Part shown: positions 4,462 through 50,613 of the stretch, one piece after another
Position numbering within the stretch: position 1 is the first letter of the stretch
Layout: each line of letters starts with the position of its first letter
Assembly: GCA_964438025.1 (NCBI GenBank)
Contig: CAYTIK010000001.1
Coordinates: 47,557 to 101,584 of the forward strand
DNA length: 54,028 bases
Reading direction: 5' to 3'
DNA from: an uncultured Bdellovibrionales bacterium
GTDB lineage: Bacteria; Patescibacteriota; Minisyncoccia; Moranbacterales; UBA2206
Translations under genes and position numbers: made by a program
The notes under the pieces: model-generated
The model's input: only the letters and a program-made list of their open reading frames with translations
The model's database searches: none
What the model was told of the DNA's origin: nothing

Positions 4462-5196
4462 ATGCTTAAAAAAGAATTGGGAAAATTGAATCTTACGGAT
4501 AGAGAAGCCGGCGTATATATGGCTCTTTTGGAGCTGGGCGAAACCTCTATTGAAAGAATTTCCATGAAATCAAAGATAAAGAGAACCACAGTATATGATG
4601 TAATTGAAACGTTAAAAGACAAGGGCCTTATTGGAACCATTAAAAAGAAAAAACGAACTTTATATTATGCTGAGGATCCCCGAATTCTCGGGAATCAACT
4701 GGAAGAAAAGAAAACCGTCTTGAATAACATCCTCCCCCAGCTATTGTCTATCGCTAATTTCATAGATAAAAAACCTGATATCAGATTTTTTGAAGGCGCT
4801 GAAGGAATAAAAAATGTTTACCAAGATACGCTGAATTATCCCGGACAAGAAATTCTTATGTGGGGATCGACCGATGTATTTAAATATTTCGATGAAGATT
4901 TTATGTGGAATTATTATCTGCAAAAAAGAATTGAAAAGAAAATTTGGATGCGGGCCATCGGACAAGATTTGGAAGTTGTACGCAAGATTAAATCCGCTGA
5001 TAGTAAAAGCCTGCGCCAAACGCGCCTGCACAATTTCAAAGAATTCCCCTTTGATGTGGAAATTAATCTTTATGGAAAAAGTAAAATAGGCGTTATGGCA
5101 TTTCAAGAACAGATCGGGCTGATCATCGAAAGCGAAAAAATTTATAATACGCTAAAAAGCATCTTCGAATTGAATTGGAAAATGCTGGAAAAATAA
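4462..5196 (+). CDS. TrmB-family transcriptional regulator
   Basis: N-terminal winged-helix LTDREAGVYMALLELGETSIERISMKSKIKRTTVYDVIETLKDKGLI. Confidence 0.8.
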   Translation: MLKKELGKLNLTDREAGVYMALLELGETSIERISMKSKIKRTTVYDVIETLKDKGLIGTIKKKKRTLYYAEDPRILGNQLEEKKTVLNNILPQLLSIANFIDKKPDIRFFEGAEGIKNVYQDTLNYPGQEILMWGSTDVFKYFDEDFMWNYYLQKRIEKKIWMRAIGQDLEVVRKIKSADSKSLRQTRLHNFKEFPFDVEINLYGKSKIGVMAFQEQIGLIIESEKIYNTLKSIFELNWKMLEK

Positions 5197-5198
5197 AG

Positions 5199-6284
5199 CT
5201 ACTTGCCAGATGTTAGTTGTCCGCAAGCGCCTTGGATGTCAGTGCCGAGACTTTTTCTGATTGTCGTTTTGATACCATTGCGCAAAAGCAGATTTTGAAA
5301 TTTTTTGATCCTTTGAAAATCCGACGGTTGGAAACTACCCTTGGTCGTATTGGCGGGAATCAAGTTTATGTGCAAGAGATAACTATCTTTGATGGATTTT
5401 AAATAATCAATAAGGCTATCCGCGTCATATGGAGAATCATTGAGACCCTTGAACATCGCGTATTCGATAAAAACTTTTCTCCGGCTTTCTTTAAAATAGC
5501 CTTGCAGGGCGTAGCGCAAGTCCCGTAGATCGTATTTCCGGCTGACCGGCATATACTTATTCCTTTTTTGCTCGTCGGCAAAGTGGAGAGAGATGGCCAG
5601 ATTAACTTGCGGAAATTCTTTGACCAGTTTTTCTATTCCATCGGGAATGCCGGCGGTCGAAACCGAAATACTGCGCGAACCAAAACCGAAAAGTTCCGGA
5701 TTGATAAGATTTTCGATACTTTTCCTCACTTCTCCCCAATTTAAAAACGGTTCGCCCATGCCCATGAAGACGATGTTGTTTAGTTTGTAGTTTGTAGTTG
5801 GTAGTTTGTGGTTTGTGCTTTGTGTTTTGTTTGTGTTTTGGATTTTGTGTTTTTGTGTTTTATTCAGATAATTTTTCCAAAACAAAATTTGGTCCGTGAT
5901 TTCTTCGGCCGATAAGTTTCTCTGAAACCCGCTTTGGCCGGTGGCGCAGAAAGCGCATTTGAGCGAACAGCCAACTTGGCAAGAAAGACACACGGTCCAA
6001 TTATCAACTTTCGAAAAAATAATTACGGATTCAATATATTTTCCGTCGTTAAGTTTTAAAAGCGCCTTGATGGAATCTTTATCTTTGGAGACTAAAACTT
6101 TTTCTGTTTCGAAAGACAATATTTTAACTTGTTTTTCGAGTTTTTCTCTTAATTCCTTGGAAAAAGTCGTAATTTCGGCAAACGAAATAGCGCTGTCTTT
6201 ATAGACTGCTTTTTTGACTTGCTCCAGCCGATACTTTGGCTGATTAGTCTCTTTTAAAATTTTCGCTATTTTTTCAATATTCAT
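5199..6284 (-). CDS. rlmN: 23S rRNA/tRNA adenine-C2 methyltransferase RlmN (radical SAM)
   Basis: CxxxCxxC cluster GCSLKCAFCATG, VFMGMGEP, and C-terminal DIQGACGQL. Confidence 0.9.
   Translation of the reverse strand: MNIEKIAKILKETNQPKYRLEQVKKAVYKDSAISFAEITTFSKELREKLEKQVKILSFETEKVLVSKDKDSIKALLKLNDGKYIESVIIFSKVDNWTVCLSCQVGCSLKCAFCATGQSGFQRNLSAEEITDQILFWKNYLNKTQKHKIQNTNKTQSTNHKLPTTNYKLNNIVFMGMGEPFLNWGEVRKSIENLINPELFGFGSRSISVSTAGIPDGIEKLVKEFPQVNLAISLHFADEQKRNKYMPVSRKYDLRDLRYALQGYFKESRRKVFIEYAMFKGLNDSPYDADSLIDYLKSIKDSYLLHINLIPANTTKGSFQPSDFQRIKKFQNLLLRNGIKTTIRKSLGTDIQGACGQLTSGK
5778..5861 (-). repeat. Degenerate 7-nt-period repeat (TAGTTTG / TGGTTTG / TGTTTTG ...) in frame inside rlmN
   Basis: Plus strand reads tagtttg tagtttg tagttgg tagtttg tggtttg tgctttg tgttttg.... 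Encodes the low-complexity NKTQKHKIQNTNKTQSTNHKLPTTNYKLNN just before IVFMGMGEP. Confidence 0.7.
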
Positions 6285-6304
6285 ATTCTAATTTTCTTCA
6301 TTCC

Positions 6305-6342
6305 ATACTACATTTTATTGCATATGCAATGATTTATAGTAT
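6305..6342. promoter_or_regulatory. 38-nt composite palindrome immediately 3' of the PaaX-like gene
   Basis: ATACTACATTTTATTGCATATGCAATGATTTATAGTAT. Central perfect 14-bp palindrome ATTGCATATGCAAT plus outer 8-nt arms. Confidence 0.8.
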
Positions 6343-6912
6343 TTAGTTTAATCTAAAAAAGGATCTTACATTTTGATCATTTTCTATTTCACAAGCAGTT
6401 ATAATTTTAATTTCTTCTTTGCTTAAATTAAAGAAATTTCTTAAAACCCCTGCTTCCTTTTGAAAATCATATGGATAGACCCAAACACTTTTTTGCAATT
6501 GAAACAATCCCAATTCTTTGATTTTTCCTCTTAAATATTCTCTCTTTATATTATCTCTGTTTTTTATATCAAATATTAAAATTCTCCATTTTTTATCCCA
6601 TCTTTCTGGTTTTTGTATTTTCAAATCATCAATTTGATATTTCCCCGCTGCTTTTTTTCCTTCTTTGGTGAGAGAAATATAAATTTGCTTACCTCTATAT
6701 TCAAATTTTATCATATCCCTTTTTTTCAAACGATAAAAAGTATCGTAAAATTCTTTCTTCTTTTTCGCGCTGTTTACTTTATAAGAAATACTTTTTATTA
6801 TTTTCGGAAGCACACGCATGAAAAAATGCGGATCATTAGCTGAGATAATTATAGCACCCCCAATCAAAAGACTTTTAAAAATTGTTTTAGTTATTTCTTT
6901 TTTATTCAACAT
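6343..6912 (-). CDS. PaaX-like / Cas2-fold domain protein with an N-terminal hydrophobic segment and a winged-helix-like region
   Basis: WDKKWRILIFDIKNRDNIKREYLRGKIKELGLFQLQKSVWVYPYD matches the PaaX central Cas2-like pattern. Paralog at 35502-36080. Confidence 0.6.
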   Translation of the reverse strand: MLNKKEITKTIFKSLLIGGAIIISANDPHFFMRVLPKIIKSISYKVNSAKKKKEFYDTFYRLKKRDMIKFEYRGKQIYISLTKEGKKAAGKYQIDDLKIQKPERWDKKWRILIFDIKNRDNIKREYLRGKIKELGLFQLQKSVWVYPYDFQKEAGVLRNFFNLSKEEIKIITACEIENDQNVRSFFRLN

Positions 6913-6938
6913 AATCCAATATATTATTACTACTAATT

Positions 6939-6976
6939 ATACTACATTTTATTGCATATGCAATGATTTGTAGTAT
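6939..6976. promoter_or_regulatory. Second copy of the 38-nt composite palindrome, 5' of the PaaX-like gene
   Basis: ATACTACATTTTATTGCATATGCAATGATTTGTAGTAT, 37/38 identical to 6305-6342. Confidence 0.8.
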
Positions 6977-7006
6977 TGATAAAAAATGCCTTCCCTAAAT
7001 TAAAAA

Positions 7007-7036
7007 GGGGGCAGGATCGTCAGACGACCTGCCCGC
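7007..7036 (-). terminator. Rho-independent terminator after the 7045-7437 gene
   Basis: GGGGGCAGG...CCTGCCC stem followed by a T-run on the minus strand. Shares the 11-mer TTGCGGGCAGG with the 36-nt hairpin family. Confidence 0.6.
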
Positions 7037-7044
7037 AAGATTCG

Positions 7045-7437
7045 TTAGATTGTTACCTCCCACACATAGCCACACTCCTTACATTTATACCACACATCTT
7101 CACTGCCAACTATCTTTTCATTGGCTTTTCTTTGGAATATTTCCCCGGCTAACTTCCAGCATTTTAAGCAAAGGTACCAGTTTTTTACCAAGGTTTCTCC
7201 GGAGAAATCCTGCACTATGTAAACATTTTTAGGATCGTCAAAAGTCTTGATAAACCCATCCGTTCCTGGGAACTTTGCCCACAAAAGCCCTACTGCTTCT
7301 CCCTCGGGTATTTCGATTATTCTCAGCACTTCACAGGGAAGCAGAAAGGGTCTGAGAAGCAACTTTTGATATTCCAGAAGAATTGGAAGCAATGGAGCTT
7401 TTGGATCAACAACAATTTGAATTCCTTTCGCAGACAT
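7045..7437 (-). CDS. Hypothetical protein with a C-terminal CxxC...CxxC zinc ribbon
   Basis: AAGGAGGTG lies 6 nt upstream of the ATG. CLKC ... CKEC. Confidence 0.5.
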   Translation of the reverse strand: MSAKGIQIVVDPKAPLLPILLEYQKLLLRPFLLPCEVLRIIEIPEGEAVGLLWAKFPGTDGFIKTFDDPKNVYIVQDFSGETLVKNWYLCLKCWKLAGEIFQRKANEKIVGSEDVWYKCKECGYVWEVTI

Positions 7438-7522
7438 AGTTTCACCTCCTTGTTATTTTATTGGATAAGAACTTAAAAAATCTTCCATCAAATCTAGCAG
7501 AGCTATGCTAAAAAGTCAATTT

Positions 7523-9352
7523 TTATTCTACTGTCACACTTTTAGCTAGATTTCTAGGCTTGTCCACATCCAAACATCTAGCTATCCCAACATAGTAAGC
7601 AAATAATTGCAAGGGAATGACGGAAAGCAATGGCGTCAGCATTTCCAAGGTTTTGGGAATATACATGACATCATCCGCCAGTTTCTGAATTTTTTTATCG
7701 CCCTTGGTCGCGATGGCGATGATTTTTCCTCCGCGTGCTTTGAGTTCCTGGAGGCCGCTTAAATTTTTTTCATAGACACTGTCACTCGGAACGATGATTA
7801 TTGAAGGAAAATTACCATCAATGAGCGCAATCGGACCATGTTTCATCTCCCCTGATGGATAGCCTTCGGCATGGACATAAGAAATTTCTTTGATTTTCAA
7901 TGCGCCCTCCAAAGCGATGGGAAAATTATATTTTCGTCCGAGATACAGCATATCTTGATACTTGGCGTATTTTTTAGCAATTTTTTTAATGTCTTTATCT
8001 TGTTTTAATATTTCTTCGATCAACCGAGGAATCCTACTCAACTCTGCGGCAATTCTTTTGCCCATTGTCAGCGCCATATCTCTTTGACGTCCTAAAAACA
8101 AAGTCAGCAAGACAAAGATTACCAGCTGTGAAGTAAAGGCTTTAGTCGAAGCCACGCCGATTTCCGGTCCAGCATGATTATAAACTCCAGCATCCGTTTC
8201 CCGCGCAATAGTTGAACCGACCGTATTAACAATTCCCAATGCCAGTGCACCTTTGTTTTTTCCTTCCCGGATAGCCGCTAAAGTATCGGCGGTTTCACCT
8301 GATTGGGAAATGGCAATAATGGCCGTGTTTTTATCCAGTTGTGTTTTACGATAACGGAATTCGCTGGCATATTCCACTTCCACGGGAATCCCGGCGTACT
8401 CTTCCAGCATATACTCGCCGACAAGTCCCGCGTGATAAGAAGTCCCACAACTGACAATAATAATCCTTTCGATGTTCCGTAATTTTTCGGAAATATCTTT
8501 GAGTCCTCCTAACTTAGCCAAACCATCTTTGACAACCAACCGACCCCTTAATGCATCAGCAATGCTGGTCGGCTGTTCAAAAATTTCCTTGAGCATAAAA
8601 TGCGCAAAGCCTTGCTTCTCCGCTTTTTCCAAAGACCAATCCAATTCCGTCGCGTCCTTATTTACCACTTTGTTTTTCGCGTTAAAAATTTCGTAATTCT
8701 CCGGCGTGATAACCGCCATTTCCCCATCTTCCAAAAAAATAACTTTATTGGTATGCCGGATAATCGCCGATGCGTCCGAAGCCACAATATATTCCTCTTT
8801 TCCGATGCCTAAAATCAGCGGGCTACCTAATCTGGCAATAATAATTTTCTGTGGTTCTTTTTTATTGATAATGGCCAAGCCGTAAGTACCCTTGATAACT
8901 CTTAGAGTTTTAATGACGGCATTTTTAAAATCGGTTTTTTTATTGAATTCTTCAATCAAATGCGCGATAACTTCCGTATCCGTTTCAGAAGAAAATTTAT
9001 GTCCTTTTTTCTCAAGACTATCTTTGAGTTCTTGATAATTTTCCACTATCCCATTATGCACCAAAAGAATATCTCCCTTGCAATCGGAATGTGGATGAGA
9101 ATTTTTGTCGCACGGTTTGCCATGAGTCGCCCAGCGCGTATGGGCGATACCTAAAAAACTGGCAATTTCCTTGCCATTAATTTTCTTTTCCAATTCCGCG
9201 ATTTTCCCAACTGCCTTAAAAGTAAAGATATTTTTTCCTGCAAAAACAGAAATTCCAGCACTGTCATAACCACGATATTCCAACCTCTTTAAGCCTTCAA
9301 TTAGGATGGGAACGGCTTGTTGTTTGCCGATATAACCAATAATTCCACACAT
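7523..9352 (-). CDS. glmS: Glutamine--fructose-6-phosphate aminotransferase
   Basis: MCGIIGY N-terminal nucleophile, two SIS domains, C-terminal KSVTVE. Confidence 0.95.
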   Translation of the reverse strand: MCGIIGYIGKQQAVPILIEGLKRLEYRGYDSAGISVFAGKNIFTFKAVGKIAELEKKINGKEIASFLGIAHTRWATHGKPCDKNSHPHSDCKGDILLVHNGIVENYQELKDSLEKKGHKFSSETDTEVIAHLIEEFNKKTDFKNAVIKTLRVIKGTYGLAIINKKEPQKIIIARLGSPLILGIGKEEYIVASDASAIIRHTNKVIFLEDGEMAVITPENYEIFNAKNKVVNKDATELDWSLEKAEKQGFAHFMLKEIFEQPTSIADALRGRLVVKDGLAKLGGLKDISEKLRNIERIIIVSCGTSYHAGLVGEYMLEEYAGIPVEVEYASEFRYRKTQLDKNTAIIAISQSGETADTLAAIREGKNKGALALGIVNTVGSTIARETDAGVYNHAGPEIGVASTKAFTSQLVIFVLLTLFLGRQRDMALTMGKRIAAELSRIPRLIEEILKQDKDIKKIAKKYAKYQDMLYLGRKYNFPIALEGALKIKEISYVHAEGYPSGEMKHGPIALIDGNFPSIIIVPSDSVYEKNLSGLQELKARGGKIIAIATKGDKKIQKLADDVMYIPKTLEMLTPLLSVIPLQLFAYYVGIARCLDVDKPRNLAKSVTVE

Positions 9353-35169: not shown

Positions 35170-35373
35170 AATGTTTTTAAATTAATTATAAAAATTAACC
35201 TCTAATGATCTCGCCTATGATGGAAAAACTTTTAATTATTTCCAATAACTAGTTACATGCGAAGTATTTATAATTTAATTATACCACAAGTTCCAACCTA
35301 TTCTAAGGCAATAAAAACAAGGTCCAAGAGGCTTTATTTTTAACCCGTAATCCCACAAATTCCTGTTAAATTC

Positions 35374-35407
35374 ATAACAAATTATTGCGATAGCAAAAAT
35401 TTGTTAT
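35374..35407. promoter_or_regulatory. 34-nt composite palindrome
   Basis: ATAACAAA-tta-TTGCGATAGCAA-aaa-TTTGTTAT; the outer arms are perfect 8 bp. Confidence 0.75.
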
Positions 35408-35440
35408 TTTTATCACTTATCTAGTGCTAAAATAATCCAT

Positions 35441-35476
35441 TACCTCATTTTCATGCGATAGCAAGAATTTGAGGTA
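35441..35476. promoter_or_regulatory. 36-nt composite palindrome 3' of the second PaaX-like gene
   Basis: TACCTCA-ttttca-TGCGATAGCA-agaatt-TGAGGTA. Confidence 0.75.
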
Positions 35477-35501
35477 CATAATTTTTAGTTATCTCTAAAC
35501 A

Positions 35502-36080: not shown

Positions 36081-36133
36081 GACAAAAACCTTTTTTAAAA
36101 CTTAATCCCGTCTCATATAATTTATAATTATTA

Positions 36134-36169
36134 TACCTCATTTTCATGCTATAGCAAGAAAATAAGGTA
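36134..36169. promoter_or_regulatory. 36-nt composite palindrome 5' of the second PaaX-like gene
   Basis: TACCTCATTTTCATGCTATAGCAAGAAAATAAGGTA, 32/36 identical to 35441-35476. The core TGCTATAGCA is a perfect palindrome. Confidence 0.75.
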
Positions 36170-36189
36170 TAAACAAAAGTTAATGTTTG

Positions 36190-47193: not shown

Positions 47194-48357
47194 TCATTTT
47201 TTAAAGTTTTTGTAAATCTCTAAAGTCTCCCGAGCGCATTTTTCCCAATTGAATTTTTCGAGCTGTCTGAAGCCTTTTTCCCGATAAGTTTGCTTTAATT
47301 CTTCACTGCGAGAAAATTTAGTCATGGCCTGGGCGATATTTTGCACATCGATGGGATTGACCAATTCGGCCGCGTCCCCCGCAATTTCCGGAATGGAAGA
47401 AACATTGGAAACAATCGCCGGAGTGCCGGTCGCGAAAGCTTCGAGCACGGTCGTACCAAAACCTTCATAGAGAGACGGCATCACAAAAAAATCCGCATTA
47501 TGGAACAATGGAACTAAATCGTCTCCGATAACATAGCCGGTAAAAATAATATCTTTGGCTAAACCTAAATCCTTGGCAATTTGCCGATATTCTTTAGCCA
47601 GCCAGCCTCTTTTTCCAGCTAGCACTAATTTATAGTCGCCAGCAATTTTATCTTTTTTATTCCTTTCTTTAAAAATTTTGAAAGCTTCAAGAAGACGCGT
47701 AATATTCTTAACCGGTTCCAGCGTTCCCAAGAAAAGCGCGTATTTGTCCTTGATAGAATATTTATCCAAAACTTTCTGGCGGCCTATTTCCGGATTTTCA
47801 AACATTCGTTTGTCAAATCCGCTATAGATCACTTGGATTTTTTCTTCCGGACATTTGAGAATTGACTGCAGATCATTTTTTATCGATTGGGAAACCGCAA
47901 TCACTTTTTCCGCTTTACTGACCATCAGGCTGATCAGTGCCTTATTTTTGGCTTGAAAAAGACTAGGGAAAACGTCATTTAACTTATAGACTGCCACATC
48001 ATGAATAGTCACGATGGTTTTTCCTCTATAGCTCACTGGAATCCGACTAGTGTGGGAAGTTGTATGGATCAAATCCAATTTTTCCTTGCTCAAAATCGCC
48101 GAACCTAAAATTTCGTTATATATTCCTGGCAAATATTTTTTATAGTCGGAAAAAGGATAAAATCTGATTTTCACATTCGGCTGAGAAAATTTTTTGACAT
48201 CTTTTTCCCGGACGCGGAAATCAAAAAACAAAACATACTCGTTTTCTTTGTCGATTTCCAAAAGATGGCGGATGAGCTGATACGTATAGTGGCCGACTCC
48301 GATGGCGTCGCCTTTTTCTGGATTTAAAATTGTTCTGGCATCGATACCGATTTTCAT
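47194..48357 (-). CDS. GT4-family (group 1) glycosyltransferase
   Basis: C-terminal EGFG...LEA..G.P motif: PSLYEGFGTTVLEAFATGTPAIVS. Confidence 0.85.
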   Translation of the reverse strand: MKIGIDARTILNPEKGDAIGVGHYTYQLIRHLLEIDKENEYVLFFDFRVREKDVKKFSQPNVKIRFYPFSDYKKYLPGIYNEILGSAILSKEKLDLIHTTSHTSRIPVSYRGKTIVTIHDVAVYKLNDVFPSLFQAKNKALISLMVSKAEKVIAVSQSIKNDLQSILKCPEEKIQVIYSGFDKRMFENPEIGRQKVLDKYSIKDKYALFLGTLEPVKNITRLLEAFKIFKERNKKDKIAGDYKLVLAGKRGWLAKEYRQIAKDLGLAKDIIFTGYVIGDDLVPLFHNADFFVMPSLYEGFGTTVLEAFATGTPAIVSNVSSIPEIAGDAAELVNPIDVQNIAQAMTKFSRSEELKQTYREKGFRQLEKFNWEKCARETLEIYKNFKK

Positions 48358-50139: not shown

Positions 50140-50613
50140 GGCTTCATCATACCGCAAAAAGCAAAAAAAGTAAAAATAATCAAATAATTTAAACTCTAAA
50201 TCTATCCGATTCTTCATCTCTCGCTACTTCATTTAATTACCCTCTATCTTCCTTTTCTCATCTTAAAATTACGACACACTTTCAGCCTAGGCTAAAATTG
50301 TGTAGTAATATTTTTTGAGTAATATGCACTGTTATGCTAAGAATTGCAATAAGATCCTGCCCTACTAGACAGGATATTAAGAATCGAGGATTTTTAGTTA
50401 AAAACTGCTCAGCCTACTGACGGAAAAGTTTCTAAAAATTACCGAGAATTTAAAATTCTAAAGCTCTAACTTGCCTACCTCACCGGCAGATGGGCGGAAC
50501 CGAAAAACAAACTCGTGGGCAACATACCATCTGCTGTCGGACCTGGCGCCGTGGCCACTTCGGGAGTGTTGTGCAGGTCGTATTTTTGTTTGAGGAAGTT
50601 AGGGTTTTCCATA

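Follow-up and report, generated by a model that had tools for sequence, protein, structure and literature searches.

A compact PaaX-like protein family of Patescibacteria whose genes lie between paired copies of a private palindrome

Analysis of a 54,028-nt stretch of DNA from an uncultured bacterium of the Patescibacteriota (order Moranbacterales; contig CAYTIK010000001.1 of GenBank assembly GCA_964438025.1, forward-strand positions 47,557 to 101,584; hereafter the window) uncovered a gene for a small PaaX-like protein that lies between two nearly identical copies of a 38-bp composite palindrome. The protein stops where the C-terminal domain of PaaX would start, and we therefore refer to it as a truncated PaaX, or mini-PaaX. 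Bracketing by a palindrome pair is the rule of the mini-PaaX family, the class of palindrome tracks the protein clade, and only the upstream copy is associated with a promoter. We favor a reading in which mini-PaaX is probably an autorepressor with two private operators that would act by looping or as a roadblock.

Locus and predicted fold of mini-PaaX

The sequence ATACTACATTTTATTGCATATGCAATGATTTRTAGTAT occurs exactly at two places in the window, the two palindrome copies that flank the mini-PaaX gene (paralog P1; Table 1), and returned no match in 100 shuffles. Both copies follow the 38-nt layout ATACTACA-TTTT-ATTGCATATGCAAT-GATT-TRTAGTAT and differ by a single base (37/38 identical). The downstream copy abuts the mini-PaaX stop codon, with the ATG of an rlmN-like gene 20 nt further on, while the upstream copy ends 26 nt before the mini-PaaX ATG, and the whole bracketed span (6305-6976) comes to 672 bp. 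This cassette had been described in an original prediction made from the sequence, and its position, identity and length were borne out by window search and mapping of open reading frames (ORFs), as was the placement of one copy directly after the stop codon; the upstream gap is 26 nt and not the 27 nt given there.

Homology searches revealed a match of P1 residues 103-177 to the Pfam domain PaaX_M (PF20803; E 4.7e-15, 55.9 bits against a cut-off of 24), and no match to the PaaX N-terminal Pfam model at E <= 0.1. An AlphaFold2 model of the monomer (built from 73 homologs; predicted local distance difference test score, pLDDT, 85) nonetheless contains a canonical winged helix with the order a1(3-17)-b1(19-23)-a2(30-40)-a3(48-63)-wing(67-80). 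This domain (about residues 3-80) is followed by a linker helix and a Cas2-like beta-alpha-beta-beta-alpha-beta PaaX_M domain (about 104-184). The top Foldseek match is E. coli PaaX (8a39; E 5.7e-6, 192 columns), followed by 3l09 and 3kfw, with further matches of Cas2 structures to the C-terminal half and of AspA/AF1382-type winged helices to the N-terminal half. The predicted combination of a PaaX/Cas2 fold with a winged-helix segment is supported, the Cas2-like part by Pfam and both parts by the AlphaFold2 model and Foldseek. The protein ends at residue 189, directly past the Cas2-like domain, and lacks the PaaX C-terminal helical domain on the ligand-binding or effector side; family members are uniformly about 180-230 aa long. 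No transposase, recombinase or HUH/Y1 domain was found in P1 by Pfam and NCBIfam.

The N-terminal hydrophobic segment that the original prediction had also pointed out falls, in the AlphaFold2 model of P1, on the first helix and first strand of the winged helix (pLDDT 66-79). A membrane anchor was rejected for P1, given a hydropathy of only 1.55 and the placement of the segment inside the winged helix in the model. In the other subfamily of this genome (P3-P6), the matching segment has a hydropathy of 2.2-2.3 and low pLDDT, and may be a membrane anchor there.

Palindrome pairs across paralogs and relatives

The genome (914 kb, 39% G+C, with relatives labelled Moranbacteria) encodes six full paralogs, P1-P6 (32-60% identity), and one fragment at a contig end, as recovered by tblastn. 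Each of the six is bracketed by a palindrome pair of its own. All six classes share a TTGC-N4-GCAA-like core at the center and carry paralog-specific arms: ATACTACA for P1, ATACCTCA for P2, GAGATGTAAAAT for P3, TTAGTCA for P4, AGTTTACTAT for P5 and ATTTCA for P6. TTGC-N4-GCAA, the motif that the original prediction had proposed to search for across the genome, is the element common to the site classes, and the linkage of palindromes to the gene family holds for 6/6 paralogs here and for about 80% of 74 related loci.

To describe the bracket across the family, the 250-nt upstream and downstream flanks of 80 related loci from many Patescibacteria lineages, of which 74 were testable, were compared by their best common 24-mer. 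A match of at least 20/24 was found at 61/74 loci and in 1/134 displaced-flank controls. At 55 loci, each of the two copies is a clear palindrome of 38 bp. Across these 55, the median gap is 54 nt from upstream copy to start codon and 30 nt from stop codon to downstream copy, and the copies are spaced 618-946 bp center to center. Beyond the 38 bp, the 15-nt flanks match at only 5.2-5.4 of 15 positions, and the copies align about as well in direct as in inverted orientation. Because the likeness ends at the palindrome, the copies are discrete sites kept alike and not remnants of a segmental duplication. A larger duplicated unit or terminal repeats were likewise rejected, since flank identity is at random level and neither orientation is preferred. 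The copy behind the stop codon, singled out in the original prediction as out of the ordinary, is a genuine conserved part of the unit and no accident. The family was found in 25 of 120 genomes sampled across the phylum, with 1-7 copies per genome, and comprises 1126 clusters at 50% identity (E <= 1e-30).

A maximum-likelihood tree of 55 proteins groups close relatives that have a half-site consensus in common. Its clades can be told apart by their arms and include one with TTAGTCA and the derived arms TGTTGTCA or CTATGTCA, a AATTGAAA clade and a GGGAATATAAT clade, and the two main subfamilies favor different site centers. Within the site, constraint is highest at the central GC (1 mismatch in 110 cells) and in the arms, and weakest at the six AT-rich positions between them, a pattern that looks like protein contacts and unlike a stem. 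The proteins are similarly uneven, with 28 invariant residues among the six paralogs in positions 101-189 (the Cas2-like half) and 7 in positions 1-100 (the winged-helix half), a split that parallels the conserved core and variable arms of the sites.

Promoter overlap and candidate autorepression

The predicted P1 promoter, TTGCAT-16-TATAAT, has its -35 element in the palindrome core and its -10 element straddling the palindrome arm (Table 1). A consensus promoter scan of 5100-7600 missed it because TTGCAT matches TTGACA at only 3/6 positions. At the corresponding place the downstream P1 copy is followed by TATGGA instead of TATAAT. In the gene direction, a hexamer resembling the -10 element (5/6 or more of TATAAT, including A2 and T6, starting 14-32 nt past the dyad) follows 34/55 upstream copies vs 13/55 downstream copies, with 10-11/55 in the opposite directions. 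As read from these elements, the upstream copy overlaps a promoter and the downstream copy does not. The two are equally palindromic family-wide, with 796 (upstream) and 783 (downstream) Watson-Crick cells of 935.

On the side of the preceding ORF, the P1 unit is separated from it by a terminator-like hairpin (Table 1) that would insulate the unit from read-through. The surrounding sequence, 6985-7045(-), folds as RNA at -22.5 kcal/mol (z -2.6), and a simple terminator scan of 5100-7600 did not call the hairpin.

In the mechanism that we propose, a mini-PaaX dimer formed via the Cas2-like dimerisation domain would bind the 38-bp palindrome, presumably under a physiological signal. Its two winged helices would read the paralog-specific 7-8-bp arms, 22 bp apart, and the conserved Cas2-like dimer would sit over the conserved TTGC-N4-GCAA center. 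Because the upstream site lies across the predicted promoter of the gene, from -35 to -10, binding there would silence the gene, a form of negative autoregulation that PaaX exerts at Px. The downstream site would either loop with the upstream site around the gene, a distance of about 0.6-0.9 kb, or serve as a protein roadblock against transcription leaving or entering the gene; looping or insulation, both raised in the original prediction, is plausible. At the P1 locus the downstream site may also affect rlmN, a possible second target. Mini-PaaX would most likely control and insulate its own expression, with each paralog forming an orthogonal protein-site pair.

Among the closest known systems is PaaX, the phenylacetyl-CoA-responsive repressor of E. 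coli and Pseudomonas (8A39, with relatives 3L09 and 3KFW), which also has a winged helix followed by a Cas2-like middle domain and has the WDxKW start in common with mini-PaaX. The E. coli PaaX operator is TGATTC(N27)GAATCA, and PaaX represses its own promoter by hindering or excluding RNA polymerase (PMC9493321). The PaaX operator and the putative mini-PaaX operator each consist of two distant short inverted repeats of similar span (N27 in PaaX, 7-8-bp arms with N22 here), and the upstream copy overlaps a promoter-like element at which mini-PaaX may repress itself as PaaX does. Unlike PaaX (about 305-316 aa), mini-PaaX has 189 aa and no C-terminal domain, and it scores 30.8 bits on the NCBIfam PaaX equivalog TIGR02277, below the cut-off of 264.55. 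No paa genes adjoin P1, the rest of the genome not having been searched for them. The mini-PaaX site further differs in its additional conserved center, TTGC-N4-GCAA, and in a second putative operator past the stop codon, and mini-PaaX genes, so far seen in Patescibacteria, occur as 1-7 apparently orthogonal paralogs per genome.

Identical or near-identical operators on both sides of a gene are also found in looping repressor systems, namely lambda CI (OL/OR), the CI proteins of phages 186 and TP901-1, lac (O1/O2) and gal (OE/OI), in which cooperative looping sharpens autoregulation. In mini-PaaX the distance between sites is instead set by the gene itself (618-946 bp), and there is no phage context. 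The C-terminal domain also resembles Cas2/VapD in its beta-alpha-beta-beta-alpha-beta fold and in an Asp kept at the end of strand 1 ('ILIFDI'), and differs in scoring 19.4 bits on TIGR01573 (Cas2; cut-off 24.5) and in being fused to a winged helix. Cas2 itself is a stand-alone protein of about 90-100 aa, encoded beside cas1 and a CRISPR array.

A literature search yielded no publication on the bracketed architecture or on PaaX-like proteins of Patescibacteria. New here are six apparently orthogonal pairs in one genome, the promoter asymmetry between copies, the convergent neighbors, a traced imprecise loss, a solo copy that appears to have been inserted and a genome with orphan sites. To our knowledge, Patescibacteria have very few recognisable regulators and their gene control is almost wholly uncharted; mini-PaaX is a large family in this setting, found in about a fifth of the sampled genomes with up to seven copies in each. 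With two copies of its site beside each gene, candidate binding sites can be found from the genome sequence alone. The family would thus offer ready-made orthogonal repressor-operator pairs, a natural recognition code linking arms to winged helix, and a tractable case for asking why a regulator keeps a putative operator behind its own stop codon.

Solo sites, turnover and competing readings

The site classes account for 36 sites in this genome (G000), at 2-9 copies per class, and 35 of them are intergenic in a genome that is about 83% coding (P about 2e-26). A typical solo copy lies just past the stop of one gene and 17-130 nt before the start of the next. Neighbors identified by Pfam are dprA, rtcB, comF-like, clpB-like, GT4 glycosyltransferase and rarA genes, along with uvrA, dnaB and tyrS named by eye from translations. 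A conserved regulon was rejected, since these solo sites adjoin unrelated housekeeping genes and are not conserved in a second genome of the same genus, G001.

Several observations weigh against autorepression or would fit a selfish or mobile protein-palindrome pair. In that reading the palindromes would be short mobile or copy-pasted elements that the cognate Cas2-fold protein binds or processes, and their presence on each side of the gene would be a signature of the element, not a regulatory design. We consider this unlikely, though worth keeping in view. The arrangement resembles that of REP-associated tyrosine transposases and their palindromic repeats (RAYT-REPIN), where a single-copy gene is flanked by cognate palindromes that are also dispersed intergenically, several orthogonal pairs coexist in a genome and compensatory changes preserve dyad symmetry; in the mini-PaaX case, further same-class solo copies are found only in intergenic DNA. 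Distribution is patchy across the phylum, and copy number is lineage-specific: the TTAGTCA class has nine copies in G000 and four in G008, whereas G009 and G020 have no more than the two of the bracket. For most genomes, the two bracket copies are all that a class contains, so that mini-PaaX would have no target but itself. G008, rated 100% complete, has no family gene and yet contains four well-kept TTAGTCA-N22-TGACTAA sites. Turnover is also fast, with only two family genes in G001 (RlmN 82% identical), neither of them orthologous to the six here, and with none of the tested solo sites in the orthologous spacers of G001. At the rtcB junction, the spacer that holds the solo copy is 88 nt long; among 11 relatives that keep the gene pair, four have overlapping genes, five have spacers of 13-34 nt and two have longer ones, which points to an insertion in this lineage. 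Differences between the copies fall at mirror positions 65 times vs 37 +/- 4.5 expected under a position-aware null with independent half-sites, 29 of them being fully compensatory, a count with some ascertainment risk since counting required both copies to be palindromic. Class P6 contains two clean compensatory pairs. We treat the excess arm symmetry as real and as not accounted for by autorepression. Finally, the Cas2 catalytic-type Asp (D114) is invariant, and because of this an enzymatic role for mini-PaaX is conceivable.

Other evidence speaks against mobility. The protein is a winged helix joined to a Cas2 fold and not an HUH/Y1 transposase, and has no recombinase domain; the repeated unit is just one 38-bp palindrome, with unrelated flanks and no visible target duplication; and the 2-9 copies are tiny numbers beside the tens to hundreds of REPINs. 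A regulator would account for the promoter associated with the upstream copy and for a site geometry that resembles the PaaX operator. The one loss that could be traced also differs from palindrome excision. At the P1 locus, G001 lacks the equivalent of window positions 6395-7509 (most of the gene, the upstream copy, the terminator and a 130-aa ORF) and retains 50 nt of the gene's 3' end along with one palindrome copy upstream of rlmN, its core mutated and one arm broken. The gene was thus lost by an imprecise deletion, and the remnant then decayed. Because this sole traceable loss leaves a 3' remnant, precise excision at the palindromes was rejected, and precise mobility of the cassette, one form of the mobile cassette suggested in the original prediction, found no support in the comparison with G001. 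Palindromes unlinked to the gene family, which by its own account would speak against that prediction, occur only to a weak degree, as same-class solo copies and as the four G008 sites. Protein-site pairs appear to turn over quickly between species, the turnover of repertoires within the genus being complete by this comparison.

A stronger form of the idea holds that mini-PaaX and its private palindromes are self-propagating units, a Cas2-fold counterpart of RAYT-REPIN in which the protein copies or maintains the palindrome via its conserved Cas2-type acidic site or recruited host repair. This is distinctly unlikely; if true, it would explain the flanking pair, the lineage-specific solo insertions into operon junctions, the orphan sites, the complete turnover of repertoires between congeners and the selection for dyad symmetry, and a selfish pair of either kind would be a new type of protein-repeat symbiosis built on the Cas2 fold.

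The four G008 sites are at C4:97102, C4:99319, C4:111734 and C8:4340 (L124, L129, L134, L190), and two of them bracket a 2.2-kb unit with a gene for a TrmB-like regulator. A TrmB-like gene of G000 (C11:28835-29563) likewise has a P4-class copy 21 nt beyond its end.

An ordinary local regulator could also produce a bracket as a by-product of gene order, with the upstream copy in autoregulation and the downstream copy as operator of the next co-directional gene, here rlmN. The downstream P1 copy does end 20 nt before the rlmN ATG, a bracketed member in another genome, G003, also lies directly upstream of rlmN, and the single copy left in G001, where the regulator gene is gone, is upstream of rlmN. 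As a general rule this was rejected, and we regard it as improbable: the next gene downstream (at least 90 aa) is convergent in 21/51 bracketed loci, so the downstream copy is not merely the operator of the next gene, and -10 elements at downstream copies are at background level, without enrichment. In addition, the copy retained in G001 has a degraded core and arm, and 18/20 rlmN loci in relatives have neither the gene nor the palindrome.

The G003 member (C54:2343-2921; L114) belongs to class GTGCTTACA..GCGTAGGC..TGTAAGC, and its protein is 57% identical to P1 and 67% to P2; its place at rlmN may reflect positional conservation or repeated choice of the same site.

An effect at the RNA level is very improbable. 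In this reading the transcript would carry a hairpin at each end, 5' and 3', that acts in stability, processing or termination and is perhaps bound by the Cas2-like (RRM-like) domain. In its favor, the P1 copies have RNA folding energies of -9.6 and -11.5 kcal/mol (z -2.9 and -4.3), the 19-bp arms are perfect in many relatives, arm differences are symmetric more often than expected, and the dprA solo copy would be transcribed, as a TGCTATATT promoter-like element lies upstream of it. The upstream copy, in contrast, covers the -35 to -10 region, so that transcripts from its own promoter would leave most of it out. Mismatches show no excess of G.U-compatible pairs on the sense strand (52 GT vs 46 AC) and cluster in mid-stem, unlike a hairpin selected for stability, a T-run follows only 13/55 downstream copies, and as DNA the P1 copies fold at -3.4 (downstream, no better than shuffles) and -6.8 kcal/mol. 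Selection for an RNA hairpin was rejected on these grounds, and the earlier proposal of a structured RNA at both transcript ends, given such weak hairpins, was not sustained.

Table 1 Coordinates of mini-PaaX loci and associated features in the window.
Feature	Position	Strand	Description
Mini-PaaX gene (paralog P1)	6343..6912	-	189-aa ORF; Pfam PaaX_M, AlphaFold2, Foldseek
Upstream 38-bp composite palindrome, putative operator over own promoter	6939..6976	.	ATACTACA-N4-ATTGC-ATAT-GCAAT-N4-TGTAGTAT
Downstream palindrome copy, putative second operator (loop partner or roadblock)	6305..6342	.	Abuts stop codon
Predicted sigma-70-type promoter of P1	6936..6963	-	TTGCAT (6963-6958), 16 nt, TATAAT (6941-6936); direct sequence reading
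Intrinsic-terminator-like hairpin and U-tract	6998..7034	-	Between 130-aa zinc-ribbon ORF and upstream palindrome; stem then CCUUUUUAAUUU
RlmN-like radical SAM gene, directly downstream of P1	5199..6284	-	Pfam Radical_SAM and RlmN_N
Second paralog, P2, 60% identical to P1	35502..36080	-	tblastn, ORF and flanks
Upstream P2-class palindrome	36133..36170	.	ATACCTCA..TTGCTATAGCA..TGAGGTAT; then TATAAT in gene direction
Downstream P2-class palindrome	35440..35477	.	Flank of P2
Orphan-class palindrome P2b	35372..35409	.	ATAACAAATT-TTGCGATAGCAA-AATTTGTTAT; 68 nt from P2 downstream copy

Neighboring genes and further palindromes

The neighborhood of P1 comprises the rlmN-like gene, a zinc-ribbon ORF, glmS and a TrmB-like gene. 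The zinc-ribbon ORF (7045-7437; 130 aa) has a C-terminal zinc-ribbon-like CxxC..CxxC and no family match, and was lost together with the mini-PaaX gene in G001.

Next to the second paralog of the window, the orphan-class palindrome P2b (ATAACAAATT-TTGCKATMGCAA-AATTTGTTAT) is one of three copies in the genome, the others being at G000 C13:9183-9220 and C28:124-161. Each lies 47-68 nt from a P1- or P2-class palindrome, and no cognate paralog is present in this genome; P2b-like arms flank mini-PaaX genes in other Moranbacteria (loci L022 and L023). The seventh paralog is cut by the contig end (G000 C13:25871-26002), with 44 aa visible (50% identity to P1). In front of it stands a P2-class palindrome (C13:25766) followed by TATAAT, just past an ORF read by eye as rpoC.

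Palindromes of other kinds were also recovered. One composite palindrome with a different core, TACGACA-N..-CAGCCTAGGCT-..-TGTGTAGTA, occurs in the window at 50269-50306, 52 nt upstream of an ORF read by eye as arginyl-tRNA synthetase, and at G000 C32:7062-7099; no gene was recognised as its partner. A separate repeat of about 85 nt (L142:1757-1841, equal to G000 C20:9756-9840; L144:1210-1295, equal to G000 C9:20909-20994) has more than 10 copies in G001 on both strands and is probably a separate palindromic miniature repeat family. Three further palindrome families are probably operators of other regulators: ACATTCTCACATTCTCGAGAATATGAGAATGT (G000 C6:30171, C19:16504, C25:13278, C39:2409 and C39:2832), TTTCATCCATTCAACCATTAATGGATGAATGGATGAAA (G000 C2:36406, C2:40224 and C23:7291) and AATGTTCCACGTGGAACATT, which occurs three times on one contig (G000 C28:1764, 2360 and 2664).

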